Assembly: GCA_028707065.1 (NCBI GenBank)
Contig: JAQTUZ010000005.1
Span: forward strand, 3,334-67,333
Source of the DNA: Patescibacteria group bacterium
GTDB lineage: Bacteria; Patescibacteriota; Patescibacteriia; Patescibacteriales; WJLG01
Length of the DNA stretch: 64,000 nt
Direction: 5' to 3'
In this document: positions 10,147-49,249 of the stretch, piece after piece
Layout of the letters: every line of letters starts with the position of its first letter
Numbering within the stretch: the stretch's first letter is position 1
Position numbers and translations under genes: made by a program
The notes under the pieces: generated by a model
What the model saw: only the letters and a program-made list of their open reading frames with translations
Database searches by the model: none
Told to the model about the DNA's origin: nothing

Positions 10147-10163
10147 GAAAAAAATTATGAAAT

Positions 10164-10258
10164 GTAATACTAATCGCACGAATACATACTAATATAACGA
10201 ATGCTCACTAAAAAATTATTCGTCATATTAGTATGTATTCGTATTAAATTAGTATTAC
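10164..10258. repeat. long near-perfect intergenic hairpin (39-41-nt arms)
   Basis: gtaatactaatcgcacgaatacatactaatataacgaat (10164-10202) against attcgtcatattagtatgtattcgtattaaattagtattac (10218-10258). About 35 of 39 positions are complementary, with a 15-nt loop. Confidence 0.85.
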
Positions 10259-11870: not shown

Positions 11871-11973
11871 GAATTAGTTGATTAGTTAATTGGTCAATTA
11901 GTTGTATCGTTTTATCAATTCAATAATTTAAGCGCCTCAACTAAGTACCTAATCAACCAATTAACTAATTATC
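11871..11973. repeat. family A inverted-repeat element
   Basis: Left arm gaattagttgattagttaattggtcaattagttgtatcg (11871-11909), 28-nt core, right arm caactaagtacctaatcaaccaattaactaattatc (11938-11973). The right arm overlaps the TAG stop at 11965. Confidence 0.8.
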
Positions 11974-12657
11974 TGCCGCGCAAAATCCCAACTCGCATTT
12001 TAATCCTTGGGACGGGTCGCAATCATAGCCGGCGCCGGAATTTTCATTGCAGCAAGGCTGGTTGCTTTGGCCGCAGCGTTCGCAGGTTTTGCCGGTGAGC
12101 AGCTGGCCGATTAAACATCGATCGCCGGTCGCGCAGGACGGGTTGCCGTCAAAGCCGCAGTTGGCACAAATATTGTTCAAACATTCGGACCGCTCACCGG
12201 TTTTGGGCAAGCAGCTATCACTCGCGCAACAAGGCTCGCCGTTAAGACCGCATTCGGCGCATTTATTATTTTGGCAAACCAATCCGGACGAACAGCTCTC
12301 ACCGTTAGCGCAACAAACCTGATCTTTTTCGCCGCAAGCAAAACAAATGCCCTTGACGCAGACGGCATCGCCATTACAAACATTGCCGGCACAGCAAAAT
12401 TCTTCATTATCGCCGCAGCCGCAATCTTCCGAGCAATAATTGCGGGTGGCGTCATTCGGATCAACGCAGCATTGCTGGCCATAATTGCAGCTGGGCGTGG
12501 TCGCGCAGCATTTCAGCTTGTTAAATCCGCAATCAACGCCTAATAGCACCTGCGGGACTCGGCGGGCGGGCGGCTGATTATTCGTCGCGCAGGCAGGCAG
12601 AATAAGAAGCGAAAATGTCAATAATATTAGCAAGAAAAATCGATAAAATATAGGCAT
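11965..12657 (-). CDS. cysteine-rich tandem-repeat lipoprotein
   Basis: ATG at 12657 gives MPIFYRFFLLILLTFSLLILPAC, a lipobox-like LPAC. This is followed by about six ~30-aa repeats of the type CG-x(3-6)-CC-x(n)-C-x(n)-C (CGEKDQVCCANGESCSSGLVCQNNKC, CGLNGEPCCASDSC..). The track N-terminus MEHENMEH lies in a repeat. Confidence 0.65.
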   Translation of the reverse strand: MPIFYRFFLLILLTFSLLILPACATNNQPPARRVPQVLLGVDCGFNKLKCCATTPSCNYGQQCCVDPNDATRNYCSEDCGCGDNEEFCCAGNVCNGDAVCVKGICFACGEKDQVCCANGESCSSGLVCQNNKCAECGLNGEPCCASDSCLPKTGERSECLNNICANCGFDGNPSCATGDRCLIGQLLTGKTCERCGQSNQPCCNENSGAGYDCDPSQGLKCELGFCAADN

Positions 12658-12678
12658 AAATTTTAGAATTAGAACAAA

Positions 12679-12775
12679 GAGCATGGAACATAGAGCAAAA
12701 TCGGAATCAACGTTAAAAAATCTTTTGTGGCGGGATGTTCCATGCTCCATGTTTTCATGCTCCATGATCCATGAT
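12679..12775. repeat. intergenic inverted repeat built from CATGGAGC words
   Basis: gagcatggaaca (12679-12690) pairs perfectly with tgttccatgctc (12736-12747). Further words ccatgttttcatgctccatgatccatg extend to 12775. Confidence 0.75.
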
Positions 12776-12856: not shown

Positions 12857-13381
12857 ATGCTTAAAGCCCCAATAAAGGCGCTATTTCTGGCAATGATAGC
12901 CCTGTTTATATTTGCGGTAATAAATCCGGCTGCGGCCGAGGAGTTTTATTACCGCGGTCCCAAGTTGAATCCGCAAATCGCCGCTTCAGCTCTTTTTCTG
13001 ACCCCCATTCGGGAAAAAAATGGCAATTCTTTCACTCTGGATCTGGTGGTTGACCCGGCCGACGAAGAGATTAATACCGTCTCGACCGAAATATCCTTTC
13101 CGACCGACAAATTATCCTTGGAAAATTTGAGCAAAGGCAATTCTTTTTGCTCTTTTTTTGTGGAAGAAAAGATCGATAACGCTCTGGGAAAAATAAAAAT
13201 CAGCTGTCTCGCCCCTTATCCGGGCACGGACAGGATGAGCAATGTCATTTCCTTGACGTTCAAGCAGATCAACACCGGCACCGCTAATCTTAATTTAAGT
13301 TCCGATTCGCTGGTTCTGGCCAACGACGGCTACGGGACAAATGTCCTGAAAGATTTGGGCGGACAGACGATAGTCGATTAG
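12857..13381 (+). CDS. small secreted cohesin-like domain protein
   Basis: Signal peptide ALFLAMIALFIFAVINPAAA. The domain pattern FTLDLVVDP..INTVSTEISFPTDKL..GKIKISCLAPYPG..NVISLTFKQINTGTANLNLSSDSLVLANDGYGTNVL is shared with the N-termini of 13791, 15790 and 40856. Confidence 0.65.
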   Translation: MLKAPIKALFLAMIALFIFAVINPAAAEEFYYRGPKLNPQIAASALFLTPIREKNGNSFTLDLVVDPADEEINTVSTEISFPTDKLSLENLSKGNSFCSFFVEEKIDNALGKIKISCLAPYPGTDRMSNVISLTFKQINTGTANLNLSSDSLVLANDGYGTNVLKDLGGQTIVD

Positions 13382-13406
13382 GCAATTGGTTAATCAGTTA
13401 ATTAGG
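13381..13406. repeat. solo family A arm
   Basis: ggcaattggttaatcagttaattagg immediately after the stop codon. No obvious partner arm is nearby. Confidence 0.5.
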
Positions 13407-13409
13407 ATA

Positions 13410-13446
13410 AAAAAATCTCCTTCTGTAAAAGGCGATTTTTATTTTT
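13410..13446 (+). terminator. weak intrinsic terminator candidate for 12857..13381
   Basis: ctcctt (13417-13422) and aaggcg (13429-13434) form a 6-bp stem with one mismatch. It is flanked by an A-run and followed by tttttatttttt. Confidence 0.35.
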
Positions 13447-13490
13447 AAAAACAAATAAATAAATTCCCTTGTAGCGAGCATTGAAAAATT

Positions 13491-13592
13491 TTGGACAAGA
13501 CGCGCAGCGTATCCTCCCAAGGCGGACAGGGAAGCCGTGCCCCGCCAACGGCGGGGCTAGGCTTCCTAGCGGAGTGATAGGAAATTTGTCCA
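13491..13592. ncRNA. candidate structured RNA (about 100-nt GC-rich extended hairpin), class unknown
   Basis: Nested pairings: tggacaa (13492-98)/ttgtcca (13586-92), ggaagcc (13530-36)/ggcttcc (13560-66), ccccgcc (13540-46)/ggcgggg (13450+100 = 13550-56). It lies in a 409-bp convergent spacer with no credible ORF and is much more GC-rich than its flanks. Confidence 0.3.
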
Positions 13593-13630
13593 GCGCGCAG
13601 TTTTCCTTGTCCCGTCATTTTTGCGGGATG

Positions 13631-13656
13631 CGCCACTTTTTTTAAAAAAAGTGGCG
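13631..13656. repeat. perfect 26-bp palindrome
   Basis: cgccacttttttt|aaaaaaagtggcg. Possibly a bidirectional terminator-like hairpin. Confidence 0.6.
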
Positions 13657-13684
13657 AAGATTTTTGACCTTAAAACGAACCTTA

Positions 13685-13737
13685 ACACACCCCGTCCCGC
13701 CGAGGCGGCGGTCCACCCCTCTCGAGAGGGGAATTTT
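13685..13737. repeat. GC-rich double-hairpin REP-like element
   Basis: acacaccccgtcccgccgaggcggcggtccacccctctcgagaggggaatttt. Hairpin 1 is cgccg/cggcg and hairpin 2 is cccctc/gagggg. Confidence 0.75.
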
Positions 13738-13747
13738 ATATGCCGAC

Positions 13748-13779
13748 AAAAAACCACCTTTATTCAAGGTGATTTTTTT
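13748..13779. terminator. bidirectional intrinsic terminator
   Basis: AAAAAA, stem cacctt (13755-60)/aaggtg (13766-71), then TTTTTTT (13773-79). It lies 12 nt past the stop of 13791..15542. Confidence 0.6.
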
Positions 13780-13790
13780 AGCTGAAATGA

Positions 13791-15542
13791 TTATTTCAAA
13801 ATTTTCTCCACGTCCTTGATCTCTTTCAAAATCCTCTTGTTGGTGGCGTCGATATGCTCGTATAAAATATTTTTTACCCGGGCCTTGCCTTTGGCGAAAT
13901 CAGCGCGATTCATCTTAACGAGATCATCGATCTCCTCGGAGACGGCGATCTTCAGTTCTTCGATATTTTTCTCCAGCACATCTTCGATCTCCAGAGTTTC
14001 TTTCTTTAATTTCTTGCGCACGAATTCCCAGATCCAGATCAGGAGCGCGACGATCAGAATGATCACCAGGAGGAGGGAGACAAGCACCGTGAAATAATTT
14101 AAGACGAACGAACCGATGCGGGCAAAAATCGGCGCCGTGACCAGAAAACTGACCTTGGCGCTCGGCTTGCTCTTCAAGCCGTTGGGATTGACCGCTTCCA
14201 CCCAGGCCGTATAGCGGCCGTTGGCATAATTCTTGGACGCGACCAGGAACCAATTGCCGTCATTGTCGCTTTTTACACTATTAACTTCGGGTTGAGCTTG
14301 GCCTTCCCCTTGAAGATAAATATTGATCGTATTATTGGGATTGGCCGTGCCGCTGATGAAGAATTTATCGCCGGGTTTTATTTCGGCGGAGTAACTTTTG
14401 ATCACCGGAGTGGCCACGGCGGCAAATTCAAAGGTCAAATTAGCCAAGGTCCCGTTGCCGGCCAGATCAAGCGCCTTGACCGCGATCGCATGCGAACCGA
14501 CTGCCAAGTCGGTCAATTTATAAGAAGTTTTGTCGGCGGTTAAAACAATTGGCTCGGCCGACAAGCTGTCAATCAATATTTCATATTTATCCAAACCTGA
14601 TAACTCGTCAGTGGTCTGGAAATATAAAGTCGGCCAATCATTGGGGTCATCCTGCTTTACCGAAAGCGCGAAGTCTTTAGGCGGCGTGGAATCGATATTC
14701 ACGCGGAAATGCCCGGTCGTCCCCCAGCGCCCCTTATTGTCCTTGACCTTGACGTGAATGTACCAGCTGCCATCGTGGTCCGCGGTATATTGTTTGCTAT
14801 TGAATAAGCCATCGGGCACATTGCCCGGTTCAGTACCGGCTTTTTGATCAAAGGCAACGCTGACGCCGGTCGCGCCATCCGGCAGTTTCCAGGAAAAATC
14901 AGCAGTCTTGGCTTTATACCATTTGGTTTGGTCGGGATGAGTATCGGAAGTGATCACCGGCCGATTGTAAGCGGCCGTTTCCACCGGTGCCGGAGTCGGT
15001 GCCGGAGTCGGTTGGCCCGGGGCCGGTTTTTCAGGAGTCGGCGCTTCTACTTTGGCGGAAATGATAAAACTGGCCGAGCCCAGGCTGGATAAAATATTCG
15101 TGCCCATGCCGTCATTGGCCAAAACATCCCCGGAAGTAAAATTGACCGCGGCCGTTCCCAGCTTGATCGCCTGGAAAGTGATGACGCAGATCGTGCCGCC
15201 ATTGCCGGTATAACCGGGGCGGGGCACGCCGCCGCCGAATCCGATCGTTCCCGCGCCTGATGAAAAAGTCGGTTCTTCGGTCCAAAGGCTGAAAACCGAA
15301 CCCTTGGCGACGCTCAGCACTTTAAGCAGGGATTTATCATAAGTAAGCGACGCCTGCCCGGCATTGATGCTTTGGCCGCCGGTGCTGATCTTTATGGCCA
15401 CGGTGAATTTGCTGTTTAAAATTTTCGTCCCGGTCGAAGGCGAGAGATAAAGCGACGCACCCGCTGCCCAGGCCGGAGTCGCCAAAAACGCGCTGGCAGC
15501 AACTAACCCAACTAAAATTAACGGGAAGAAAAATTTTCTCAT
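13791..15542 (-). CDS. cohesin-like surface protein with C-terminal TM anchor and cytoplasmic coiled coil
   Basis: Signal peptide, cohesin-like domain (about 15047-15464), PT-rich linker PTPEKPAPGQPTPAPTPAP, Ig-like modules, TM FVLNYFTVLVSLLLVIILIVALLIWIW and a charged helical tail. It is a paralog of 40856..42604 with the same length and layout. Confidence 0.7.
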   Translation of the reverse strand: MRKFFFPLILVGLVAASAFLATPAWAAGASLYLSPSTGTKILNSKFTVAIKISTGGQSINAGQASLTYDKSLLKVLSVAKGSVFSLWTEEPTFSSGAGTIGFGGGVPRPGYTGNGGTICVITFQAIKLGTAAVNFTSGDVLANDGMGTNILSSLGSASFIISAKVEAPTPEKPAPGQPTPAPTPAPVETAAYNRPVITSDTHPDQTKWYKAKTADFSWKLPDGATGVSVAFDQKAGTEPGNVPDGLFNSKQYTADHDGSWYIHVKVKDNKGRWGTTGHFRVNIDSTPPKDFALSVKQDDPNDWPTLYFQTTDELSGLDKYEILIDSLSAEPIVLTADKTSYKLTDLAVGSHAIAVKALDLAGNGTLANLTFEFAAVATPVIKSYSAEIKPGDKFFISGTANPNNTINIYLQGEGQAQPEVNSVKSDNDGNWFLVASKNYANGRYTAWVEAVNPNGLKSKPSAKVSFLVTAPIFARIGSFVLNYFTVLVSLLLVIILIVALLIWIWEFVRKKLKKETLEIEDVLEKNIEELKIAVSEEIDDLVKMNRADFAKGKARVKNILYEHIDATNKRILKEIKDVEKILK

Positions 15543-15557
15543 AGCTCCTTGTTATTT

Positions 15558-15713
15558 AAATCCAAAATCTTAAGCACAAAATCCAAAGCAAATCCAAAAT
15601 TCAAATGGTCAAAACTTATCCAAAGAGCGACCATCTATTCGCTGACAAAATATTTTCAATTTTAAATTTTAGATTTGTTTTGAGTTTTGGATTTTGAGCT
15701 TTGAATTTAGGAT
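15558..15713. repeat. intergenic inverted repeat built from AAATCCAAA words (family D)
   Basis: Left arm aaatccaaaatcttaagcacaaaatccaaagcaaatccaaaattcaaa. Right arm tttaaattttagatttgttttgagttttggattttgagctttgaatttaggat. The loop is about 56 nt. Confidence 0.75.
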
Positions 15714-15789
15714 CCAGGGCAAACCGATTGTTTCGCGAAATCAAATCATCCTTATTATAACTTAAATTCAAGAATACGACAATTTAAAA

Positions 15790-16881
15790 TCAACCGAGCT
15801 TGATTTTATTTTTCGCCTTTCTCTTTAAAATGACGATGATCGGCACTAACACGAAAATGATCACTAAGATGCCGCCGCCGACAGCGATGATCGGCCGCCA
15901 ATTTGTTGAGCGGGGATTTTTCAATGATTGCAGCGCCGCGTTATCATACTCGACGATCCGCTCGTTGCCGGCGCGGTCAACGGCTTTAACCTTGATCACG
16001 CTGTTCAAAGACTGGTCCTTAAGGATATAGGGCGAGTCAGCTTTCACCCAGCCGGCGGGCAAAACTTCCTTGATCCTGAAAATCTGACGGATAAATCGCT
16101 CAAAGGCGCTTTCCTTTTTTTCTTGCAGATTTTGCGCCTTGGTTTCCAGAACTTCATAGTGATCAACTCCGGTCTGCTTGTCGACCGTGGAAAAAACCAC
16201 AAAATATCGGCCATTGGCGACTCGCGGACTGTTGTCGATCTCGATCACGAACGGTTCGGGCGGAATTTTGTCAGCCGCGATCTTCTCGGCCCAGACATCC
16301 GAGCTGGTCGTGATCTTTTCATTGATCTCAATAACCGCTCCTTGCGCGTTGATCGAAACTCTGGTGCCCTCGCCGTCATTGATATAAGCTTCCGTATCCG
16401 AGCTGAAATCAATCTTGGCCTTGTGAAAAACGATGGGGTTTTTGGGAGAAAAAATCAACGAACCTAAAATATTGCTATCGCCCGGATCGCCCGGGATGAC
16501 GCCGCAATAGCCGCCGGGAATTCCGCCGGAAAAAATAATTTTTCCTTCGCGGTTAACCCGCTCCAGCGCCTCCTGATCCGGCTTTTGCACCCAAATGGTT
16601 AAAAAAGATTCTCCGGAATTAAAATCCTTGAACTCCAGGATATCGGAAGGAAAATTAATGCCGACTTGCGCGGCATTAATGCATTCGCCGCTCGAAACGC
16701 CAACTTTTACCCGCACTTCAATGACATCATTCGGCCCGATCGTTTTTTGCGGCGGATCAAGATAAAAAGTGGCGGCTTTAACCGAAATCGGGAAAAAAAC
16801 AACTGGAAATATAAAAATAAATATTCCCAAAATAAACGTGGAAATTTGAAATTTGAAATTTGAAATTCGTTTTTTCATCAT
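15790..16881 (-). CDS. cohesin-like surface protein with C-terminal TM anchor
   Basis: ATG at 16881/16878 (MMKKRISNFKF..). Cohesin-like domain about 16314-16773 (FYLDPPQK..IEVRVKVGV..INAAQVGINFPSDIL..GKIIFSGGIPGG). C-terminal TM IIAVGGGILVIIFVLVPIIVIL followed by a basic tail. Confidence 0.65.
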   Translation of the reverse strand: MMKKRISNFKFQISTFILGIFIFIFPVVFFPISVKAATFYLDPPQKTIGPNDVIEVRVKVGVSSGECINAAQVGINFPSDILEFKDFNSGESFLTIWVQKPDQEALERVNREGKIIFSGGIPGGYCGVIPGDPGDSNILGSLIFSPKNPIVFHKAKIDFSSDTEAYINDGEGTRVSINAQGAVIEINEKITTSSDVWAEKIAADKIPPEPFVIEIDNSPRVANGRYFVVFSTVDKQTGVDHYEVLETKAQNLQEKKESAFERFIRQIFRIKEVLPAGWVKADSPYILKDQSLNSVIKVKAVDRAGNERIVEYDNAALQSLKNPRSTNWRPIIAVGGGILVIIFVLVPIIVILKRKAKNKIKLG

Positions 16882-16945
16882 AAAAAATATTAAGATTGGA
16901 AATTGAATTTTAAAATTTCTAATTTCCAATTTCTAATTTCTAATT
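16840..16945. repeat. family C (GAAATTT) word repeats forming nested hairpins
   Basis: ggaaatttgaaatttgaaatttgaaattcg (16840-16869) overlaps the first codons of the downstream gene. Its partners are ttggaaattgaatttt/aaaatttctaatttccaa and aatttctaatttctaatt, up to 16945. Confidence 0.7.
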
Positions 16946-16946
16946 A

Positions 16947-18281
16947 TCATCCTGTCCAATAATACATCATGATGGAAAAATCGGCTAAACCGACTTTGCC
17001 GTCCTTGTTGATGTCGGCGGTCTGGTCAGAGGTATCCCAGTTATAAAGCAAGATGGAAAAATCCACCAGGTTAACCGCGTTGTCGCAATTCAGATCGGCA
17101 ATGCCGCACTTGCCCTTTTCCGGCACATTCTTGCCGACATAAAAACTGACAGAACGGCTGAAATTGCTCTCGATCACGCCGGTCGGACTGTTCAGGTGGA
17201 TCAAAGCTTTGGCCGTATGAAAATCTTCGGTTAAAGGCGCGGTATTAAAAACCAAGCTCCAATCACCCTCTGCCCCGCTGGTGGTGGTGGAGACCCTTTC
17301 CAGATCCGAATTGACGTGCACGGCAATATTGACGGTCGGGGAACTCTTGCCGAAAATTTTTATGCTCTCTCCTTTGTTCACTTGATTCTTGTTGACATCG
17401 ATAGTGGGTGAAAGATAAACGTTTTCGATGGTCGTAATCGATTTGGAAGCGACGCGAAAGGTCAAAGTGAGCAAAGTGGATTTTAAGCCGCGCTCATCGT
17501 CGGTCCAAAGTCCGAAAGAAGAAACGCCCGGAGTCGTATCGCCGCTTTGAAAATGAAAATCGCCTTTGGAGTCGGCGCGCACGATGCCGGCGACGTTGCC
17601 GTCGATCAAGACCCGGACTTCGCGGTTGGGATAACCGTTGCCGTTAATGACCACTAAAGTCTGGTCGGGCGGGGTTTTTGTGCCGGGTACAAAGCCGGAG
17701 GTTCCGCCGCTCGAACCGCCTCCTCCGCCGCCGGTAGTCGGCAGCTGGCCCGGCTGGGGTTCTTGATTGCCGACCACGCTGCAATTGCTTAAATCGAGCC
17801 GGCAATTAGGAGTGCAATGCAAGGTGCCGGTGGTATAACCAAAACTTTTACAATCGGCGCCGCCAAAATCAAGGTTGTCGCATTCCTCCGCCTGTTGTTT
17901 GTGCAGATCGCCGCAAGTGTAGCAAGTCGAAGTGGAATAGGCGGTGCAATCACTGGTGCAAGCCAGCCGTCCAGAGACGAAAGGCAGCCCGGTGTAGATA
18001 TCGATGAAACTTTGGCAAGTCGTGGTGCCGGTGTTGGACAAAATTCCCCTGGACGGATTGCCCGGATCGCAAAACTCATAATAAGGGTCGATAAAACCAT
18101 CGCCGCAAACCAACAGAATTTTTACCGAAGTTTCCAGATAGGCGGAAGTGGAGGCATAAGCCGAGAAAACCCCTTCTTTCATCGCACCGACCCGAGCCCA
18201 AGGAAATAAATTAAAATTCAAAGCCAGACACAATAAACAAAAAAAAGAAACCAACAGGATTTTGGGGAAATTTTTATTCAT
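16947..18281 (-). CDS. secreted dockerin-containing protein with Cys-rich N-terminal repeats
   Basis: Signal peptide. CGDG..E.CD-type Cys-rich repeats (CGDGFIDPYYEFCDPGN, CGDLHKQQAEECDNLDFGGADC), a Gly-rich linker and two Ig-like modules. The C-terminal duplicated dockerin repeat is DLNCDNAVNLVDFSILL / DINKDGKVGLADFSIMM (16950-17108). Confidence 0.75.
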   Translation of the reverse strand: MNKNFPKILLVSFFCLLCLALNFNLFPWARVGAMKEGVFSAYASTSAYLETSVKILLVCGDGFIDPYYEFCDPGNPSRGILSNTGTTTCQSFIDIYTGLPFVSGRLACTSDCTAYSTSTCYTCGDLHKQQAEECDNLDFGGADCKSFGYTTGTLHCTPNCRLDLSNCSVVGNQEPQPGQLPTTGGGGGGSSGGTSGFVPGTKTPPDQTLVVINGNGYPNREVRVLIDGNVAGIVRADSKGDFHFQSGDTTPGVSSFGLWTDDERGLKSTLLTLTFRVASKSITTIENVYLSPTIDVNKNQVNKGESIKIFGKSSPTVNIAVHVNSDLERVSTTTSGAEGDWSLVFNTAPLTEDFHTAKALIHLNSPTGVIESNFSRSVSFYVGKNVPEKGKCGIADLNCDNAVNLVDFSILLYNWDTSDQTADINKDGKVGLADFSIMMYYWTG

Positions 18282-18575: not shown

Positions 18576-19634
18576 TTATTCATTCTTTTCCTCCTTGTGC
18601 TTTTCGGCTTGTCTTACCAGCCATTGCCAGAATTTTTTATTAAGAGCTTTGAAGAAATTAATAATCGTGCGCAAGATCGGCCGGGAGGGCAACAAAACCA
18701 GCCAGATAAAGAAACGCCAGAATCTGATCTTAACCAGCAGGGCGATTATCGCCAAAACTATCAAAACTATCCCCGCCGCGACCAGCCAGGGCCAGACGCC
18801 CAAATTATTTCCGCCCAAAATGCCCGGATTAGCGATAGTAAAGGCTATTTCATAATAATTGACGATCTCCTGCTCCTTATAAATTCTAACTTTGACCCAA
18901 TATTGTCCGGCGGGAAGATGAGTGGTAAATTCGGCTGTCACAGCCGCGGTGGAAAACGGGTCGATCTTTTTGATCGATCGGTCCACGCTTGACTGGAGCA
19001 TTTTTTTCTTACTCAGATCCCAAACCTCGATTGTTACTTGGGATGGCGCGGTTTTGACATTGCCTTTATTTTCGATATTCATCACGACCCTTATTTTGTA
19101 AAAAAGCCGGTTGAAGATCGGCGCCCAAATTTTCCAATCCCAAGGTTTGCCCAAGCGCTCGAAATCAGGAATGGAAACCAGCCTGACCAAAAAGTCCGCT
19201 TGGGAAACATTAGTCAGCGCCAAGTCAATATCGATCCGCGCGCCCAAAGCGATGGACACGCCGGCTCCATTTTCCGAGGCCGGGGCGACTTTAACATCGA
19301 TCGCGCCGGTATAGTTGCCCAATTCCGCGCCTTTGGGAATTTTAAAAGTTATCACCATCGGCACTTGCAATTTTCCCTTGGGCAAAACAAAACTGCCGCC
19401 CTGGTCAAGCGTAATCCAAGAAGCTATTTCCGGAGCATTGACTTTTACTTCCGCCTTAAGATCATCGGCAGCGTCCGACCGCAATAACATTATTTCCTGC
19501 TTGTAGGTCGAGCCTGGCGTTAATTGATGATTTTGGATCAAAGGCGGTGAAACGCCAAAACCAGCCCGAACGCCATTAGCCCAGGAAAAAAGCAAAACTA
19601 AAACAAGCAAAGGCAATAAAATTTTCTTTAGCAT
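18576..19634 (-). CDS. DUF916/DUF3324-like (CscA-like) surface protein with C-terminal TM anchor
   Basis: Signal peptide LLVLVLLFSWANGVRA. Two beta-sandwich-like halves (FGVSPPLIQNHQLTPGSTY..., NIENKGNVKTAPSQVTIEVWD...LPAGQYWVKVRIY) and a C-terminal TM. The architecture matches 46947, 48065 and 49250. Confidence 0.5.
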   Translation of the reverse strand: MLKKILLPLLVLVLLFSWANGVRAGFGVSPPLIQNHQLTPGSTYKQEIMLLRSDAADDLKAEVKVNAPEIASWITLDQGGSFVLPKGKLQVPMVITFKIPKGAELGNYTGAIDVKVAPASENGAGVSIALGARIDIDLALTNVSQADFLVRLVSIPDFERLGKPWDWKIWAPIFNRLFYKIRVVMNIENKGNVKTAPSQVTIEVWDLSKKKMLQSSVDRSIKKIDPFSTAAVTAEFTTHLPAGQYWVKVRIYKEQEIVNYYEIAFTIANPGILGGNNLGVWPWLVAAGIVLIVLAIIALLVKIRFWRFFIWLVLLPSRPILRTIINFFKALNKKFWQWLVRQAEKHKEEKNE

Positions 19635-20102: not shown

Positions 20103-21866
20103 TCACGGATACTGCCAATCGTCATATTTATTTAGAACCACGGTAAAAGTATTGACGCCGTAAAAGGTGGCGGACGGCGTACCGGCCGGAACCCTGATGC
20201 CCCAATAAATCTCAGCCGAGACGTCACTTTGATCAATCGGACGAGCAATTCCCAGAGTCACCGTATCCGGAGTTGTCGAGGAAGTGTTGCCGGCGGAAAA
20301 AGAGAAGGGATTTTTATCATGTTGCTGATTATCGATCTTGATTATTTCCGGGCCAACATGATTTTTCAACATATCCTCGCCGGAAACCGCCGTATCGATC
20401 GGAGTGTTGCCGTAATTAACCACGGTGGTCGAGGCATTGTCCGCGCCGGTATTAGTACCGGCTTGAACGGTGCCGTAAGGAATGGTATTTTCATCGACGC
20501 TTAAAGCCGCGGACGAAATAACTTCCACGCCGTTTAAAGTATTATAAAGACCCAAGCCTTTCAATCCCAGCGCATCGTTGGCTTTAATGCCGGCATACCA
20601 GGAACTGGTGGAAGCGACGCTGGAAGCATCGGTCGGCATGGTAAAAAAAGCCAGCGTGGTGCTGCAAGTGATCGAAGCGGTGGCGCTGCTTGGCCCGGAA
20701 CAATTGGAAATAGCGCAATGATCGGTGGCGATCTGATAACAATTATTATCGTTGGCGCCGCAGTTATTGCCGCCCGAAACCGCTTCTAAATAAATCGTAC
20801 TGGTGGCGGTGGACAGATCGGTACAGCCGTTATTATCGGTAACACTTGAAGAAGTTGCCAAAACTAAAACTTCCGACGCTCCTTTGATGTTCAAAGTGAT
20901 ATTATTACCGCTATTTAAAGTCACGTTGGAAACTGTCGGCGCGACATTATTGACATTATAAACGCTGGAGGTGCCATTGCCGGTCGAAGCGGCCATATTG
21001 TGCCAATCTTTGATAAAACCATAATAAGTATAGGCGGCATGCATTTGGGGAACGTCGGTGGTGTAATCGCAAGAAACGCTGGTCGCCACGGAAGAAGAAC
21101 CGTGGCAAAGTTCAGTGTCGCCACAGCCGCCACCGACCGTCCAGCTATTACTGGAACAAACGAAGATGCTCATATGATCAGATCCGCCTTGAACGTCGGA
21201 ATCCGTGGTGCTGGCGGTAATGGTCACTGCCACTCCCGGATCTTTATTGTCTGACGAGGTATAAAGATGAGTTAGCTGTGGCGCGTGATTGACATAGAAC
21301 GGACTGCCGCTGTCGCCGGCGCCTTGGCTTTGAACCGAACACCGCTGATCGCCCCAATGGCCGTCACAAATAAAAGCATACCAAATCTGCATTTCCGAAC
21401 CCGGATCGGTGACATTGTTGTAAGTGCAGCTAACCGGCACTGTGCTGGAAGCTTTACTGGAAAGACAAAATTGAGTTCCGCTGACGCAAGAAGGCGGCTG
21501 GCCGTCCACCGTGGTAGTAGCCTGGGTGCCCGAACAAACGATCATCCAATAACTGTCTCCCTCGTCATCAAGCGCGGTGCCGGTAAAACCAATACTGCCT
21601 CCGACATTAACCGGCGAAGTAGAAGAGGAAACCGGACTTTCCGCCGGGCCGGCGGTAAAGTGCGGCGGAGAGTTTTTCACGACCACCGAAGTGGTGGCCG
21701 TCGCCGCCTCGGCATCGGCCGCCAGATTAACAAAACCCTTTTGCGCCGGTTTGACGAAATTCAAATTCAAGTTGAAAGAAAACCCCAAGACTATCACATT
21801 AAGCAAACAAAAAATCACGATGATCGGCAAAGTGTGTTTAATTTTCTTTTGTAAAAATTTGGCCAT
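20103..21866 (-). CDS. secreted Cys-rich protein, stand-alone paralog of the C-terminal ~590 aa of the 4142-aa giant
   Basis: N-terminal signal anchor. It is collinear with giant-1 residues encoded at about 28108-29650: NSPPHFTAGP/NTAPSFTSVP, FYVNHAPQL/FRVNHPPSF, ITLNIKGASEV/ITLNIKGAADK, CGANDNNCYQIATDHC/CAANDNNCYQLTTSDC, and the tail IYWGIRVPAG/IYWGIGIPAT. Confidence 0.75.
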   Translation of the reverse strand: MAKFLQKKIKHTLPIIVIFCLLNVIVLGFSFNLNLNFVKPAQKGFVNLAADAEAATATTSVVVKNSPPHFTAGPAESPVSSSTSPVNVGGSIGFTGTALDDEGDSYWMIVCSGTQATTTVDGQPPSCVSGTQFCLSSKASSTVPVSCTYNNVTDPGSEMQIWYAFICDGHWGDQRCSVQSQGAGDSGSPFYVNHAPQLTHLYTSSDNKDPGVAVTITASTTDSDVQGGSDHMSIFVCSSNSWTVGGGCGDTELCHGSSSVATSVSCDYTTDVPQMHAAYTYYGFIKDWHNMAASTGNGTSSVYNVNNVAPTVSNVTLNSGNNITLNIKGASEVLVLATSSSVTDNNGCTDLSTATSTIYLEAVSGGNNCGANDNNCYQIATDHCAISNCSGPSSATASITCSTTLAFFTMPTDASSVASTSSWYAGIKANDALGLKGLGLYNTLNGVEVISSAALSVDENTIPYGTVQAGTNTGADNASTTVVNYGNTPIDTAVSGEDMLKNHVGPEIIKIDNQQHDKNPFSFSAGNTSSTTPDTVTLGIARPIDQSDVSAEIYWGIRVPAGTPSATFYGVNTFTVVLNKYDDWQYP

Positions 21867-40855: not shown

Positions 40856-42604
40856 CTATTCGATCTCTTTTTCCACATCTTTAATCTCCTTGCTGATGAA
40901 TTCCTGGGAAATATCCAAGGCTTCGTTGATCTTATCGCGCACGCGTTTTTCCGACTCAGAGTAGCCGGATTTTTTGTCGGCCAGCTCCATCAATTCATTG
41001 ACTTCTTCCTTAAGCGCGGCGAATATTTCATTCAGCCGCTTTTCCAATTCCTGCGACTCTCTGATCGCCCGATCTTTTCTCTGCCTATTCTGCCGCTTTA
41101 AATAAATCATCAAGCAAATGAGGAAGATGATCACTAACAAGAGGAAAAGAATGATCCAAGTTCCATAAGCGGTGATGAGCGAAGGAGACTGGACCAAGAG
41201 GCCCTTGCGCGAACTTTCAGTGCTTTGCGCGCCGCGGCTGTCGATCACTTGCGCCCAAACGTGATATTCGCCCCTGGCCAATTCATTGTGCTGAAAATAA
41301 GTCCAGTTGCCGTCGGTATCGGTTTTGGTCTGCAGAGTTTTGATATTTTTATCATCCTGGGAAATATAAATATTGATGGTCGCGTCGGGATAAAAAGAAG
41401 TTCCCTGGATCGCCAGTTCCGCGCCCTGATTGATCGTCGCTGGCATATCGGTAATGACCGGGGCCTTCAAGGGTTCCACGGAAAATTGTTTGGATGAACT
41501 GGCCGTGTTCCCGGCTTGGTCGGCTACGGCGATCTGAAGCAGATGCGCGCCTGGTTTAAGTATCGGCAGCTGATAAGGATTTTTGAGATATTCCGGAGCG
41601 GCATATTCCTTGATTTCTCCGTCTAAATTAATTTTATACTTGGCAATGCCGGAAGTTACGTCAACGGTGACAAAGGACAGTTTCGGCGTCGGGTTCGTGG
41701 GATCGCCGCCGTTATCGATGTTGATCGCGAAATCGGTTGGCGGCTTGGTATCGATCAAAGTTTGGCGGGTTGCGACCGGCCCCCAACCGGCCTTATTTTG
41801 AAATTTTAAATGCAGAAAGTTCCGGCCATCGGCGACGTTGGAATAAGTTTTAGTTTCGATGATGCCGTCGGATTTCTTTCCCGGGTCGGTTGAAGAGCTT
41901 TGGTCAAGGGAAAGGCTGACCGCGGAAACATCGGGCAAAAGTTTCCAGCTAAAGACCGGATTATTATTGGCATACCAGATATTTTCGTCGGGATGGGTGG
42001 CCGAATCGATCTTGGGCTGGGGCGGCAAGGCGCCGCCGACCGTTGGCTGGGTCGGCTGGGTAGTCGGGACAGTTGAAGTCGGCTTGCTAACCACGGGCGT
42101 TTTTTCCTTGAAAGTATATTGCGCGCCCGAAGTATTGGCCAAAATGTTGGTTCCCTGGCCATCGGCGGCCAAGGCGCTGGCCGAAGAAAAACTGGCTCCG
42201 CCCGAACCTGCTTTTAAAACCGCGAAGTTTACGGAAATGATCACGCCCGAACTGCCTTTATAAGCGGCCGGGGCTCCGCCCGAGTAAGTTATTGTCCCGG
42301 CGGTATTGGAAAAATTAGGTTCTGCCGTCCAAAGGCTGAAAACCGAATTATTTTTGGAGATGCTTTTAACCACCAAATAATCATTGTCGAATTTAATATT
42401 GCCGTCCGAGGCGTTAACGCCATTCCCCCCGCCGCTATTAAGAACGATGTTGACGTTAAAAACATCGCCGACGCTGTAAGTTCCGCTGGAAGGCGATAAA
42501 TACAAAGTCGCCCCGGCAGCCCGGACGCTCGCGGCCGGCATAAAACCAATCACAAAAGAAAGGAAAAAAATTAAGGTAAAAATTCTCGCGAATTGCTTGA
42601 TCAT
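40856..42604 (-). CDS. cohesin-like surface protein with C-terminal TM anchor and cytoplasmic coiled coil
   Basis: Signal peptide, cohesin-like domain (about 42109-42517: ATLYLSPSSGTYSVGDVFNVNIVLNSGG..), a T/P/Q linker, Ig-like modules, TM WIILFLLLVIIFLICLMIYL and a charged helical tail. It is a paralog of 13791..15542. Confidence 0.7.
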   Translation of the reverse strand: MIKQFARIFTLIFFLSFVIGFMPAASVRAAGATLYLSPSSGTYSVGDVFNVNIVLNSGGGNGVNASDGNIKFDNDYLVVKSISKNNSVFSLWTAEPNFSNTAGTITYSGGAPAAYKGSSGVIISVNFAVLKAGSGGASFSSASALAADGQGTNILANTSGAQYTFKEKTPVVSKPTSTVPTTQPTQPTVGGALPPQPKIDSATHPDENIWYANNNPVFSWKLLPDVSAVSLSLDQSSSTDPGKKSDGIIETKTYSNVADGRNFLHLKFQNKAGWGPVATRQTLIDTKPPTDFAINIDNGGDPTNPTPKLSFVTVDVTSGIAKYKINLDGEIKEYAAPEYLKNPYQLPILKPGAHLLQIAVADQAGNTASSSKQFSVEPLKAPVITDMPATINQGAELAIQGTSFYPDATINIYISQDDKNIKTLQTKTDTDGNWTYFQHNELARGEYHVWAQVIDSRGAQSTESSRKGLLVQSPSLITAYGTWIILFLLLVIIFLICLMIYLKRQNRQRKDRAIRESQELEKRLNEIFAALKEEVNELMELADKKSGYSESEKRVRDKINEALDISQEFISKEIKDVEKEIE

Positions 42605-43354: not shown

Positions 43355-45202
43355 TTAACCGGTCCAGCAATACATCATGATGGAAAAATCGACCAGGTTG
43401 ATCTTGCCGTCTTGATTGATATCGGCATTGGCATTATTCGTTCCCCAGTAATACATTAAAATGGAAAAATCGACCAAATTGATCTTGCCGTCCTTGTTGA
43501 TGTCGGAGCGGGAACAAGGCCCTTGCTCGAGCTTCTGACCCACGCCGCAGAGGACTTTTTGGCTCAAAGTGCTTGAACCGATCTTGGCATAAGAAGTCAG
43601 CGCCGTTAATTCATAAATCCCCCGGCTCAATCCGGCGGTGGGAAAAATCGAACTCCAGCGGCCGTCGGCGCTAACTTTTTCTTTCTTGGCGCTTAGTAAT
43701 TTTTTGCCCGGGTCGTTCATTTGGACGATCACCCACACGTTGGGGGCGCTTTGTCCGGAAACGAAAATATTTTGGCCCAGCTCAATTGTCGTGCTGGCCA
43801 ATTTGATCGTCGGCGGAATCAAAATATTAGTCACATTCGTTTGCGTGTTAGCCTCGATCCAAAAAGTCGTGGGATAGGCGATCGAATTTATCCCTTCGGT
43901 GTCCTTGGCCACCAGGGTAAAAGTATATAATCCCTTTTTCAGGCTGCCGACCTCGGCAAAAAAACTGGCGTCAGGCCTGGCCAGCACCGATCCCAATAAC
44001 TGGCTATCCTGGGAAACGCCGATGCTCGAGCCGGGGTAAGCATAGCCGCTCAAAGCCACGCTGGGTAATTGCACGTTTTGGAGAGGAAAAGGCTTGAGGA
44101 TGCCCGTGCCTGAACCGCTGCCCGAACCCCTGCCTCCGCCGCCGCCACCGCCGCCTCCTCCGCCGCCACCGCCGCCCGTGCCGCCGCCGGTTCCCGTGCC
44201 CGTGCCGCCGCCCGTGCCGCCGCCCGTGCCGCCCTCGCCTTGCGCGGCCACGCAAAAATGAATGAGATAATCGTCAAAATTCACCGTGTCTTCGACAGTA
44301 TCGTGACAGCGGACAAAATAGGAAAAACAGCGGGCGCTGGATAAACCGGTGATCATGATGGTGTGATAGAGATCGTCGGAAGTATAAAATTCATCGGTCA
44401 TGTCGTAATAATCCGTCCCGCTCGCCACGCTATAGCGGCAAGTGGCGTCATAGTTGGTCGTTAAGGACATGATCGTCTGCGTTGTTTGCGCGGTCAAAGT
44501 GCCGGTCGGCAAACCGTTGGCGCGAATTTTTATCAAGCCCGCGCTCACCGCGACCGGCTCGACCATCACCACGAAAGTTCGGACATTATCAATGACCGCG
44601 TCGGCCGCGTTATAAGTCTTGACATCAAGCCAATAGCTTCCGGCGCTGGAGGCGTTGATGATCTGATTTACGCCCAAACCGCCAAAGGCGGCGTTCTTGC
44701 CCATTTTTATCCGCACTCGATCATGCGCGGCAATGCCCGTGGAAGAATTCAAAGTGATGGTGATCTTTCCTCCCTGGCCGGCAGTAACTGCCACGCCGTC
44801 GGTGCTGGTGGCGGCCACATCGCCCAACTGGCGATTGAGAAAAATATCAGTCCCGGAAGCGGCCACGGCCAGATCCAGATCAAAATAATCGAACAGAGCT
44901 GGGATGGCCAAGCCGTTATTGGCGAAGCTAATGACAATTTTTCCTCCCGGCGGCACTGCTTGAGCGGTATTAAAATTAACCAGATGATTAGTTGAAGTTG
45001 CCGGCCGAGAACTGTTGATCAGATCATAGGCTTGATATAAATTGGTGGCCCGGGCGGAAAAGGCCGAAATCAAAAAAACGGCCAGCAAACAAATAAAGCC
45101 GCCCAGGACCTGTTTGATAAGTCCATTTCTATCATGAAAGCGACTTATCCGGCCGGCTCTGGAAAAATAACTGATTTTGTTAAATTTTTTACCAGTGATC
45201 AT
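43355..45202 (-). CDS. secreted dockerin-containing protein with poly-Gly linker
   Basis: Signal anchor, an N-terminal beta-rich domain, the G/T-rich tract GGTGGGTGGGTGTGTGGGTGGGGGGGGGGGGGGG, and two Ig-like modules. The C-terminal dockerin pair is DINKDGKINLVDFSILM / DINQDGKINLVDFSIMM (43358-43516). Confidence 0.75.
   Translation of the reverse strand: MITGKKFNKISYFSRAGRISRFHDRNGLIKQVLGGFICLLAVFLISAFSARATNLYQAYDLINSSRPATSTNHLVNFNTAQAVPPGGKIVISFANNGLAIPALFDYFDLDLAVAASGTDIFLNRQLGDVAATSTDGVAVTAGQGGKITITLNSSTGIAAHDRVRIKMGKNAAFGGLGVNQIINASSAGSYWLDVKTYNAADAVIDNVRTFVVMVEPVAVSAGLIKIRANGLPTGTLTAQTTQTIMSLTTNYDATCRYSVASGTDYYDMTDEFYTSDDLYHTIMITGLSSARCFSYFVRCHDTVEDTVNFDDYLIHFCVAAQGEGGTGGGTGGGTGTGTGGGTGGGGGGGGGGGGGGGRGSGSGSGTGILKPFPLQNVQLPSVALSGYAYPGSSIGVSQDSQLLGSVLARPDASFFAEVGSLKKGLYTFTLVAKDTEGINSIAYPTTFWIEANTQTNVTNILIPPTIKLASTTIELGQNIFVSGQSAPNVWVIVQMNDPGKKLLSAKKEKVSADGRWSSIFPTAGLSRGIYELTALTSYAKIGSSTLSQKVLCGVGQKLEQGPCSRSDINKDGKINLVDFSILMYYWGTNNANADINQDGKINLVDFSIMMYCWTG
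44101..44240. repeat. GGN/GGT-ACC low-complexity tract (poly-Gly coding)
   Basis: Plus strand reads ccgccgccgccaccgccgcctcctccgccgccaccgccgcccgtgccgccgccgg..., encoding the Gly/Thr run of 43355..45202. Confidence 0.8.
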
Positions 45203-45675
45203 TTTTGAAAATCATTCTCATTTTGAAGATTGTTCTCTTTTTTCTCTTCCTGCGGCGGCGCTTCCTTCCTCTCCCATTGGGCCAGAATTTCCAATTCCTT
45301 TTCGCGGCGGCGATCAAAATAAAAATTAAGGACTACTAAAGCCGCCAAAATGCCCAGCGCGAGAAAAATAGCCAAAAGCAAACCGCTATTCCAAAAGTTG
45401 TCCTGCTTCTGCCTTTGCGCCTCCTGATCATTGAGCGCCTGTTCTCTGGCGTTAAGCTGTTTTTCCTTTTCGTCAAGCTGCAGCGCCAATTGGTTGATCG
45501 GGTTCACCGCCACGGTGGCGGAATTGTTGATGCCCGTGGCCGCGCTCAATTTATTACCCAAGAAAAAAACCAAATTCAGGGGATGGAGAAAAAGAAAAAA
45601 CAGAAAAAACGATAAAATCACCGCCAGGCAAAAGATCAGCGCCGAGTGATAAATTTTTTTAATGAAGAAAAACAT
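45199..45675 (-). CDS. small membrane protein with coiled coil, unknown function
   Basis: Two TMs flank a Q/E-rich helix (QLALQLDEKEKQLNAREQALNDQEAQRQKQ). Its stop overlaps the start of 43355..45202 (ATGA, 45199-45202), suggesting translational coupling. Confidence 0.5.
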   Translation of the reverse strand: MFFFIKKIYHSALIFCLAVILSFFLFFLFLHPLNLVFFLGNKLSAATGINNSATVAVNPINQLALQLDEKEKQLNAREQALNDQEAQRQKQDNFWNSGLLLAIFLALGILAALVVLNFYFDRRREKELEILAQWERKEAPPQEEKKENNLQNENDFQK

Positions 45676-46946: not shown

Positions 46947-48038
46947 CTATGATTTCTTCCTCAAATCAATCACTTTCTTTTCTTCCAATTTTTCAGCCGC
47001 CCCGGCTTCCTTGATCGTTTTTTTCTCGGCTTTTTTTCTGGCTGTTTCCGCGGCTTTCAACTGCTTTTCCAGACCCTTCACCGAACGGCGGATATAATAG
47101 CGCACGAAAATGAAAATCAAAACAAGGAAGAGCAATAAGCCGCCGCCGATGAGCGAGAGCCAGCGCCAATTAAATCCCCAGAAAAAGAAAGTGGCGAATT
47201 CGGTTTGTTTGGCCTGCTCGCCATAGGAAAGCGATAATTCCGCCCGATAGCGATTGATCAAAAAGAAATTATCGCCCGACCATTTCAAATTATCCCAGGT
47301 CCGTTCGCCTTTGGGCAAGACATTGCCGAAATCGCTGGCGATATTCACCGGGATTTCCCCCTGCTGTTTGCCGAACATGTCGAAAATCCTGATATCGCCG
47401 GTCGGCGCGAGATGGACATTGCCCAAATTGTCAAAACGCACGCGGAAATTTCCCTCGCCGCCCCGATAGATCCGGTTGCTAAAAGTGAATTCCCTGATCA
47501 TCCCTTTCTCCTCGATCGCTCCGGCCACTCTGGCCAAAATCAGCGAAGAGATATAAGAGGTGACTTTTATTTCCGTGCCTTTGGCCGTTTCCGCCGGCGG
47601 ATTGGTGCCGATCAAAATCGCCGCGTAATGCCCGCCGGGCTGGGCGTTGAGCGGCACGTCGATCGAAAAAGAAAAAGTGGCGGTTTGGAACGGCGGCAAG
47701 TCCTGTTTCTCCTGGCTTAAAGTGATCCACTGGCTTAAATAAACGCTTTTATTTTCCGGCGTCTCCGGCAAATTGCCGTTATTTAAAAATTTTATTTCGC
47801 CGTTGCCGTTATCCGCGAAATCAACTATTTTGGCGTAAACGGTCACCGGATAACTATTATTGTTAACCGCGTTAACGGCCGTGGCCAAACTTTCACCCGG
47901 CTCCATATTAATCTTCATCAGCGGCGGCGTGATCGTCAAAGCCAAAGCAGAGTCATTGGCGGCCCAAACCAAACCCGGGGTGAAAATTAAAAAAAATGAA
48001 AATATTATAAAAAAAATTTTTTCAATCATGGCTTTCAT
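46947..48038 (-). CDS. DUF916/DUF3324-like (CscA-like) surface protein with C-terminal TM anchor
   Basis: Signal peptide FSFFLIFTPGLVWA. LALTITPPLMKINMEPGESLATAVNAVNNNSYPVTVYAKI.., then a second half FRVRFDNLGNVHLAPTGDIRIFD..LPKGERTW..YRAELSLSYG, a TM and a Lys-rich tail. Confidence 0.5.
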   Translation of the reverse strand: MKAMIEKIFFIIFSFFLIFTPGLVWAANDSALALTITPPLMKINMEPGESLATAVNAVNNNSYPVTVYAKIVDFADNGNGEIKFLNNGNLPETPENKSVYLSQWITLSQEKQDLPPFQTATFSFSIDVPLNAQPGGHYAAILIGTNPPAETAKGTEIKVTSYISSLILARVAGAIEEKGMIREFTFSNRIYRGGEGNFRVRFDNLGNVHLAPTGDIRIFDMFGKQQGEIPVNIASDFGNVLPKGERTWDNLKWSGDNFFLINRYRAELSLSYGEQAKQTEFATFFFWGFNWRWLSLIGGGLLLFLVLIFIFVRYYIRRSVKGLEKQLKAAETARKKAEKKTIKEAGAAEKLEEKKVIDLRKKS

Positions 48039-48064
48039 GGGCTTAGGGAAATTTAACCCCTCGT

Positions 48065-49078: not shown

Positions 49079-49089
49079 TTTATTCAAAT

Positions 49090-49230
49090 TGAGGGGAAAA
49101 CCCTTGATGGTCCCGCCGCGGCGGGATCAAGACTCCCTTTTCCAAGGTGCTCGGGTCGCTCCGTTATCCGGCCGACTCTCGCGGTTATTTTATGCCCCGC
49201 AGTTTGCTCGCGGGGAATTATAGATTAAAA
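49090..49230 (-). promoter_or_regulatory. ~145-nt conserved intergenic element, copy 2
   Basis: Aligns with 22725-22870: same TCTATAAT 5' end, same conserved core, and the GC hairpin cccgccgcggcggg flanked by cttgat/atcaag. It ends about 12 nt before the start region of 48065..49078. Confidence 0.4.
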
Positions 49231-49249
49231 ACTATCCGCCGCTAAACAG

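Follow-up and report, generated by a model that had tools for sequence, protein, structure and literature searches.

In cellulosomes, the classical setting of the cohesin-dockerin connector, scaffoldins with several cohesins bind enzyme-borne dockerins and are anchored through S-layer homology (SLH) domains or sortase. Type I pairs are represented by CipA, OlpA and OlpC of Clostridium thermocellum and ScaB of Acetivibrio cellulolyticus. The connector is also used outside cellulose degradation, in the GH84C toxin complexes of Clostridium perfringens, in a pair from Archaeoglobus fulgidus and in the amylosome of Ruminococcus bromii; these systems still link enzymes or toxins, or their genes occur singly. 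Non-cellulosomal cohesins and dockerins were reportedly found to be widespread in the 2009 survey of Peer et al. (cited in PMC10066038), and the non-cellulosomal dockerins of Omnitrophota have been suggested as adhesins. Here we describe an operon in a 64-kb stretch of one Patescibacteria (candidate phyla radiation, CPR) genome (contig JAQTUZ010000005.1; the window, to which all window-level statements are limited). In this operon a secreted dockerin protein, D444, is encoded together with two membrane-anchored cohesin proteins, C363 and C583, and a further membrane protein, W352. As in the non-cellulosomal systems the connector is found outside cellulose degradation, but here it is encoded in one operon, with non-catalytic cargo and integral membrane carriers. 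We consider it probable (roughly 0.6) that the cohesin proteins form a membrane-anchored platform that retains and displays the secreted, dockerin-borne head protein.

Two other described systems resemble parts of this operon. In the WxL clusters of Firmicutes the WxLIP protein consists of DUF916, DUF3324 and a transmembrane (TM) segment (PF06030 + PF11797) (Hassan et al. 2023, PMC10599100). W352 shares the WxLIP layout (signal peptide, two immunoglobulin (Ig)-like domains, TM segment, short tail), but WxL clusters are without cohesin or dockerin, and no WxL domain was detected with Pfam in the proteins scanned for it. Within the Patescibacteria, the saccharibacterium Southlakia epibionticum has a dockerin-domain envelope protein with Ig-type domains, SEML1_0315, which is essential for epibiotic growth and for which targeting of host glycans has been speculated (Wang et al. 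2023, PMC10633639). By description it is like D444 a Patescibacteria surface protein with Ig-type domains and a dockerin. SEML1_0315 is, however, a stand-alone gene of 927 amino acids (aa) beside unrelated genes, whereas D444 lies in a cohesin operon, and no cohesin or dockerin term occurs in the supplementary annotation tables of the S. epibionticum genome in PMC10633639. It was therefore rejected as an instance of the same system. No description of this operon was found in the full-text literature searched on CPR, Patescibacteria or Parcubacteria, most subscription journals being outside its coverage.

The genes on which the argument depends, with their parts, are the following:

12857..13381, plus strand: w174, a secreted stand-alone cohesin without anchor, oriented against the operon; accessory
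13791..15542, minus strand: C583, the long cohesin carrier (Pfam Cohesin 27.1 bits, and Big_13)
15048-15467, 14031-14087 and 13794-14030, minus strand: cohesin, TM helix and 77-aa cytoplasmic tail of C583 (Pfam, hydropathy)
15790..16881, minus strand: C363, the short cohesin carrier, with signal peptide, cohesin, FN3-like domain and C-terminal TM helix (aa 334-352)
16947..18281, minus strand: D444, the secreted dockerin protein (Dockerin_1 18.1 bits)
16950..17108, minus strand: aa 392-444 of D444, the dockerin module; its calcium loops lie at 17061-17096 and 16980-17015, and its end reads DFSIMMYYWTG
17781..18107, minus strand: aa 59-167 of D444, the Cys-rich head, in which the repeat CG(D/N)Gx..E.CD occurs twice with an invariant Cys pattern (alignments A5 and A8)
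18576..19634, minus strand: W352, first gene of the core operon, with signal peptide, ectodomain of ~260 aa and TM helix (aa 283-301)
40856..42604, minus strand: C582, a paralogue of C583 and carrier of a second module (Pfam Cohesin 29.8 bits)
43355..45202, minus strand: D615, the second dockerin protein, dockerin at 43358-43516 (Dockerin_1 37.9 bits)

Four cohesin-domain and two dockerin proteins had been proposed in a first-pass annotation made from the sequence, and all six open reading frames (ORFs) were confirmed. Family-built hidden Markov models (HMMs), run on the six-frame translation of the window, placed exactly four cohesin-type domains, in w174, C583, C363 and C582, and exactly two dockerins, at the C-termini of D444 and D615 (E-values 1e-8 to 1e-65). 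A motif scan gave the four calcium loops of these dockerins and none further, and hydropathy predicted an N-terminal signal peptide on each of the six proteins. Gene model P0121 in the public record likewise starts the 363-aa ORF at 16881. For the 583-aa protein there is an identical public entry, 'MAG: cohesin domain-containing protein [Patescibacteria group bacterium]', MAG standing for metagenome-assembled genome, and the 363-aa (PHE24_02670) and 444-aa (PHE24_02675) proteins are labeled 'hypothetical protein'. The six genes had been presented as a loose set. Instead, they sort into two modules, the W352-D444-C363-C583 operon and a second, looser module with D615 and C582; W352, which had been left out of the set, belongs to the operon.

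The cohesins of C583 and C582 exceed the Pfam gathering score (24.1 bits for Cohesin, PF00963; that of Dockerin_1, PF00404, is 22.9 bits). For the short proteins, 4 of 25 orthologues of C363 and 3 of 17 orthologues of w174 matched Pfam Cohesin at E<=0.01. Profile-profile comparison with HHalign linked the three cohesin families at 99.3-100%: the C363 and C583 families matched at 100% (E=1.6e-43), and w174 matched the C583 family at 99.5% and the C363 family at 99.3%. BLASTP gave E-values of 6e-6 for C363 against C583-type proteins and of 6e-13 for w174 against C583. Sequence-profile matches in the PDB were too weak to establish the fold, so C363, the weakest case, was modeled, and the fold was settled with Foldseek. 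The AlphaFold2 (AF2) model, based on 48 sequences, had a predicted local distance difference test (pLDDT) score of 88.5 and a predicted template modeling (pTM) score of 0.73. When it was compared with the PDB, ranks 1-33 were all cohesins (probability 1.00, TM-score up to 0.75, root-mean-square deviation 3.1 A), and several of the top matches were dockerin-binding cohesins solved in complex. The best match was 2w1n, the cohesin+FN3 pair of C. perfringens GH84C (E=3.5e-10), and C363 has the same cohesin-then-FN3 layout as these toxin complexes (2w1n, 2jh2). Cellulosomal type I cohesins share the fold as well (TM-score up to 0.75 to 6kgf, 5nrm and 4dh2). According to the model, C363 has the cohesin fold, a nine-stranded beta-sandwich of the jelly-roll type, and C583, C582 and w174 would have the same fold through their homology to it. 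The first-pass annotation had made its proposal dependent on the N-terminal domains matching cohesin profiles or folds, and it is cohesins that Pfam, the profile-profile comparison and the fold of C363 indicated.

In C583 the signal peptide and the cohesin are followed by a Pro/Thr linker, then by an Ig-like domain containing the motif THPDQxxWY, by an FN3/PKD-like domain and Big_13, and finally by the TM helix and the tail. C363 is a shortened C583 that keeps the FN3-like domain between a cohesin and a TM helix. Three C-terminal TM helices, two of them followed by a charged tail of ~80 aa, had been predicted before, and hydropathy agreed: the TM helix spans aa 486-504 in C583 and aa 484-502 in C582, and in both it is followed by a K/E-rich tail of 77-80 aa. 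Such a conserved cytoplasmic tail on the long carriers distinguishes them from cellulosomal carriers. Residues E515, E518, K573, E574 and D577 of the tail are invariant in the C583 family, and KEIKDVE is its terminal motif. The tail is formed by two amphipathic helical stretches with a hydrophobic spacing of 3-4 residues and a variable linker between them. No signalling domain was recognized in it, Pfam and NCBIfam giving generic TM plus coiled-coil matches only. Its conservation and amphipathicity appear equally compatible with inside-out coupling and with oligomerization or clustering of the carriers. The paralogue C582 is 35% identical to C583 over the full length (E=2e-92). A profile search with C583, covering 1.84 billion representative proteins, gave 4317 representatives at E<=1e-30, giant multi-Ig proteins counted in; among the best 150 relatives, more than 100 were single-stretch proteins of ~550-640 aa.

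D444 is composed of a signal peptide, two Cys-rich DUF4215-like repeats, a disordered Gly-rich linker, two Ig-like beta-sandwiches and the dockerin. Pfam Dockerin_1 matched 21 of 23 D444 orthologues, and the profile of the D444 family found the type I dockerin 2y3n_B in the PDB (E=5e-4). In the AF2 model of D444 (pLDDT 77) the dockerin helices comprise aa 405-413 and 432-443. Foldseek with this model gave generic tandem-Ig matches only, including the S-layer stalk protein SlaB, and was uninformative for the head and the dockerin. D615 has a different N-terminal head, for which there was no Pfam match; the rest of the protein is built as in D444, from a Gly-rich linker, two Ig modules and a dockerin. 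The last 238 aa, which cover both beta-sandwiches and the dockerin, are common to the two proteins (35% identity, E=2e-40), in agreement with the earlier description of duplicated dockerin repeats preceded by the same Ig modules. The helix faces of the two dockerins are almost identical, so cross-docking between the two modules is plausible.

A check of the calcium-binding residues had been suggested. Both loops are canonical in D444 and in D615, and the D444 family shows how strictly they are kept: positions 1 and 12 are D in both repeats of 44/44 orthologues, position 3 is N/D, position 5 is D/N/S, and position 9 is N/D except for a G in repeat 2 of 15/44. The helices following the loops (DFSILLYxW and DFSIMMYYW-TG) are nearly unvaried in the same 44 sequences. 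Where lineages do differ, the pair of helices changes in parallel (LL/MM versus AA/MA at positions 16-17), which indicates that internal symmetry is maintained. A Cys four residues before loop 1 (Cys392 in D444) was present in 42/44 orthologues, and a partner Cys was found either at position 4 of loop 1 (15/44) or just before loop 2 (26/44), never at both. This compensatory, mutually exclusive pattern (alignment A8) suggests a disulfide clasp whose partner was switched in evolution, and a disulfide at Cys392 would imply an extracellular location. The duplicated calcium-loop/helix form is that of cellulosomal type I dockerins, and the internal two-fold symmetry suggests a dual binding mode. Features that set the present dockerins apart from the cellulosomal ones are the strongly hydrophobic helix face (DFSILLYxW) and the presumed clasp with its alternative Cys partners.

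The cargo of the dockerins had been called non-catalytic, and no catalytic domain was found by Pfam in D444 or D615. The Cys-rich head of D444 weakly matched TIGR02232 (myxo_disulf_rpt), and a relative in locus L041 matched Pfam DUF4215 at 2e-12; across loci the number of Cys-rich repeats per head is one or two. The heads of other lineages consist of MG2 domains and an InlB B-repeat, of fn3, of DUF4215 or of unannotated sequence, while stalk and dockerin are unchanged. Pfam detected no enzyme domain in the 10 variable-head relatives scanned, and only dockerin, Ig-like and EF-hand-type families in the 23-member D444 family. The 64 dockerin ORFs encountered in 83 loci were all of D444-related classes, and among the 33 that were scanned with Pfam there was no glycoside hydrolase or other enzyme.

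One genome per species of GTDB was scanned for relatives of C583. The scan yielded 354 loci, of which the best 80 were analyzed. By their record titles these belong to Falkow-, Parcu-, Portnoy-, Doudna-, Wildermuth-, Uhr-, Colwell- and Wolfebacteria. ORFs were assigned to classes by phmmer, and gene order was counted in the 77 loci having a C583 gene. The co-directional order W352, dockerin protein, C363, C583 was almost invariant:

C363 homologue immediately upstream of C583: 66/68 informative loci
dockerin-bearing protein upstream of C363: 54/57 informative loci
W352 homologue upstream of the dockerin gene: 36/48 informative loci, at single-sequence sensitivity
w587 homologue (see below) upstream: 21/43 informative loci
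small free cohesin of the w174 type downstream: 15/67 informative loci

Two distant C583 homologues were found in the same set of four co-directional genes, of which they are part. In most loci neighboring genes abut or overlap; in the window a 247-nucleotide (nt) gap with a promoter-like site precedes C583. No cytoplasmic gene is conserved within the operon in the loci examined. Many third-party MAG records that contain the operon (L007-L013 and others) are titled 'uncultured Gammaproteobacteria', 'Deferribacteres', 'Methylomirabilis' or 'Planctomycetes'; these implausible titles probably stem from mislabeled bins.

Six of the best 150 C583 relatives were 799-901 aa long, and in the four of these that were read C363 is fused in frame to C583 (813-901 aa; P0366, P0382, P0384 and P0449). 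The C363::C583 fusions fall in several 50%-identity clusters and have a consistent topology, in which the TM helix of C363 is followed by a short basic loop and by the former signal peptide of C583 as a second TM helix, forming a hairpin. In the fusion at L084:3222-5882 the DNA is without a stop codon or TGA at the junction, and WxLIP-like and dockerin genes are located just upstream. By the Rosetta-stone argument, such fusions are evidence that C363 and C583 function next to each other. Together with the near-invariant operon of a dockerin gene and two carrier genes, they strengthen the idea of a docking platform put forward in the first-pass annotation. Beyond that annotation, the conserved operon context in Patescibacteria is new, and a docking function free of enzymes appears well supported by the comparative evidence.

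Domain identities, topology, conservation of the operon, fusion of the carriers and conservation of dockerin and tail are all directly observed, and on them the following model is built. C363 and C583, as type-I membrane proteins, would each present one cohesin outside the cell. As C363 is a shortened version of the C583 architecture, the two cohesins would stand at different heights above the membrane, one on a short stalk with a single FN3-like domain, the other on a long stalk made of the Pro/Thr linker and three Ig-type domains. Of the four core proteins only D444 is secreted in soluble form, and its dockerin (that of D615 in the second module) would plug into one or both cohesins. Docking would keep D444 on the cell and project the variable, non-enzymatic head away from the membrane. 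The co-encoded WxLIP-like W352 is probably part of the base, and the free secreted cohesin w174 may be an accessory of some lineages only. The cohesin-dockerin contact, the cohesin used, the bridging of both cohesins by one dockerin, the stoichiometry and the biological role are all what we infer from this arrangement. The output is most likely adhesion to, or contact with, a host, a substrate or the cell's own envelope, and not catalysis. Adhesion or contact is favored because variation is confined to the tip and because the neighbors are giant LamG/DUF2341/fn3 surface proteins.

Several observations weigh against the displayed-head model. In the window C363 and w174 gave no Pfam Cohesin match, sequence-profile searches of the PDB with the three cohesin families gave weak and partial cohesin matches (E 0.04-0.8), and the Dockerin_1 score of D444 lies below the gathering score. 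With three or four cohesins to one or two dockerins, some of the cohesins may have other ligands. Our view is limited to 64 kb of the genome, and enzyme-borne dockerins may be encoded elsewhere. The adhesion role, finally, is read from domain types and head variability only. The strong divergence of the cohesins would suit a set of independent, co-encoded surface proteins that never touch, the cohesin-like jelly-rolls being structural or binding glycan or peptidoglycan and the dockerin serving as a calcium-stabilized end module. That the cohesin fold is a general beta-sandwich, and that cohesins outnumber dockerins two to one, points in the same direction. We regard this as unlikely, considering that across deep lineages a dockerin gene and two cohesin genes stay together almost without exception (54/57 and 66/68, see above), that the extreme conservation and symmetry of the dockerin helices are typical of a binding face and not of a passive module, and that dockerin-binding cohesins, several of them solved in complex, head the list of structural matches. 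The surplus of cohesins would also fit additional clients, i.e. a minimal scaffold of the cellulosome or amylosome kind, with hydrolases encoded outside the 64 kb inspected and D444 and D615 as accessory proteins. This is the classical role of the connector, yet here it is very improbable. There is one cohesin per carrier and no multi-cohesin scaffoldin (two cohesins occur in one protein only in the rare C363::C583 fusions), the carriers are anchored by a C-terminal TM helix and a basic stretch and have no SLH domain or sortase signal, and the conserved operon partner is non-catalytic. The cohesin and dockerin proteins of the window have no carbohydrate-binding module (CBM) or X module, and Pfam gave no enzyme domain in any of the 33 locus and 2 window dockerin proteins scanned. 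As none of its hallmarks, the multi-cohesin scaffoldin, enzyme-borne dockerins and SLH/sortase anchoring, was found in these sequences, the system is not a cellulosome.

Two further alternatives were considered. Occupancy of, or tension on, the dockerin might be transmitted through the TM helix to the tails of C583 and C582, or a cytoplasmic partner might control display. The conserved tail residues and the two amphipathic stretches would be in line with such coupling, as would the conserved short tail that W352 also has. The tail, however, contains no recognizable signalling domain, the operon includes no conserved cytoplasmic gene, and a coiled-coil tail is explained more simply by oligomerization; we therefore think transmembrane signalling improbable, more so than independent surface proteins without contact. 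A structural element of the envelope, such as a surface-layer anchor or a wall spacer, instead of an adhesin for an external partner, would alter the role of the complex and not its mechanism. The operon is near-universal in the Patescibacteria lineages known from free-living samples and the lengths of its proteins are very constant, the WxLIP-like partner comes from a family proposed to bind peptidoglycan, and SlaB was among the fold matches of the D444 stalk, though as a generic Ig match. On the other hand, a distal head that varies on a fixed stalk and dockerin is more typical of ligand-binding tips, and the flexible Gly-rich linker argues against a rigid lattice, which leaves a purely structural role doubtful. 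Of these readings we thus prefer a cohesin platform that displays the head of D444.

In Patescibacteria, which are very small and host-dependent, partner attachment and envelope organization are largely obscure, and most conserved surface genes are annotated as 'hypothetical', as are two of the core genes described here. Few surface operons of Parcubacteria- and Falkowbacteria-type lineages are more conserved than this one, and the platform would give it a concrete model open to testing. The connector of the cellulosome has apparently been reused for a cell-surface structure, widening the known uses of cohesins and dockerins to membrane-anchored, enzyme-free display. As a compact natural pair with a hydrophobic, symmetric and disulfide-clasped dockerin, it might be of use in surface-display engineering. 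One can speculate further, at much lower confidence, about a putative surface organelle common to Patescibacteria, with a WxLIP-like base, two cohesin heights and interchangeable heads, attaching to hosts or particles and coupled by the tail to the cytoplasm. If so, cohesin-dockerin docking would be at the core of a symbiotic lifestyle and not of polysaccharide degradation.

The ectodomain of W352 comprises two Ig-like domains, and after the TM helix the protein ends in a short tail of conserved sequence (FWxW). No direct Pfam WxLIP match was obtained with W352 itself. In alignment A6, 5/23 sequences matched Pfam WxLIP_PGBD, the best being a Pfam-positive paralogue from the window that is itself part of A6, and 1/23 matched WxLIP_HBD. 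HHalign connected the W352 family to the same paralogue at 93.6% (E=2e-7). W352 is thus probably a remotely homologous, WxLIP (DUF916/DUF3324)-like membrane protein, as judged from profile similarity. Its paralogues, and the gene upstream of the operon, are as follows:

46947..48038, minus strand: WxLIP-like membrane protein of the second module, Pfam-positive (WxLIP_PGBD 28.0 bits, gathering score 27.3)
48065-49087 and 49250-50425: further WxLIP-like paralogues of the second module
20103..21866, minus strand: w587, secreted 587-aa protein upstream of the operon and loosely associated with it, a transcription unit of its own in the window

The w587 gene is followed by a terminator-like hairpin at 20080-20061 on the minus strand. 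The protein is paralogous to the C-terminal ~540 aa of a giant protein of 4142 aa (28105-40533), with 39% identity (E=9e-94). The two have in common a C-terminal domain of ~155 aa, ending in IYWGI..P...Y.G.NTFT.VL (region 28105-29750 in the giant). In four loci with a shorter, single-repeat form of the operon the WxLIP-like gene is preceded by genes for a protein of ~200 aa and for a large protein:

L071:3114-5982, L049:115-5888, L060:3020-5871 and L084:622-1215: small and large upstream proteins

The C-terminal ~155 aa of the large protein are homologous to the small protein in all four loci. This parallels the small and large WxL proteins of the WxL clusters. A true WxL cluster was nevertheless rejected, since no Pfam WxL match was obtained even at E<=5 in w587, the C-terminus of the giant, or the small and large upstream proteins. 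No relation between the small-protein domain (alignment A10, the same four loci) and the C-terminal domain of w587 was detectable by HHalign (0.7%).

The second module contains, in order, the WxLIP-like proteins (46947-50425), an FGE-sulfatase-like protein, a 158-aa membrane protein, D615, Hsp20 and C582. It includes no C363 and is kept gene for gene in a close relative, L079. The best matches of C582 were the L079 copy and then the C583-position proteins of L044, L060 and L049, which have the shorter, single-repeat operon form; after L079, the WxLIP-like paralogues likewise matched best the shorter-form loci (L044, L049, L060, L071 and others). In phmmer searches the protein encoded at 46947-48038 matched the first operon gene of these loci. 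The protein of the FGE-sulfatase (formylglycine-generating-enzyme-like) family (45848-46753) has a signal anchor and is encoded just upstream of the 158-aa gene (45199-45675), whose product has N- and C-terminal TM-like segments and which overlaps the start of D615 by 4 nt; both are kept in L079. The Hsp20/alpha-crystallin gene lies between D615 and C582 (42733-43197), likewise in L079 (7390-7854). A gene for a cytoplasmic chaperone inside a surface-protein operon is odd.

Both modules seem to be part of one long surface-protein island, which on the same strand includes giants at 28105-40533 (4142 aa) and 52271-63967 (at least 3898 aa). The giant secreted proteins carry DUF2341, LamG and many fn3 domains. 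With the exception of a D-alanyl-D-alanine carboxypeptidase, the secreted and surface proteins of the window were non-catalytic by Pfam (adhesin-like, Ig/fn3-type, ABC-transporter ectodomains). Three more genes adjoin the cohesin operon. One encodes a VirD4/TrwB-like ATPase containing a treble-clef zinc finger (8239-10179). The others are w507 (10281-11804), for which a single N-terminal hydrophobic segment was predicted and no family was matched, and w266 (11965-12765), a Cys-rich secreted protein. Homologues of w266 and w507 recur downstream of the cohesin operon in about 8 Falkowbacteria-type loci. A link to the ATPase was rejected, as w266/w507 co-occur in about a dozen loci only, mostly Falkowbacteria-type, the ATPase itself not having been searched there. 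The convergent gap between w174 and C583 (13382-13790, 409 nt) contains three terminator-like hairpins on the plus strand, one of them with an 11-bp stem (13631-13656).

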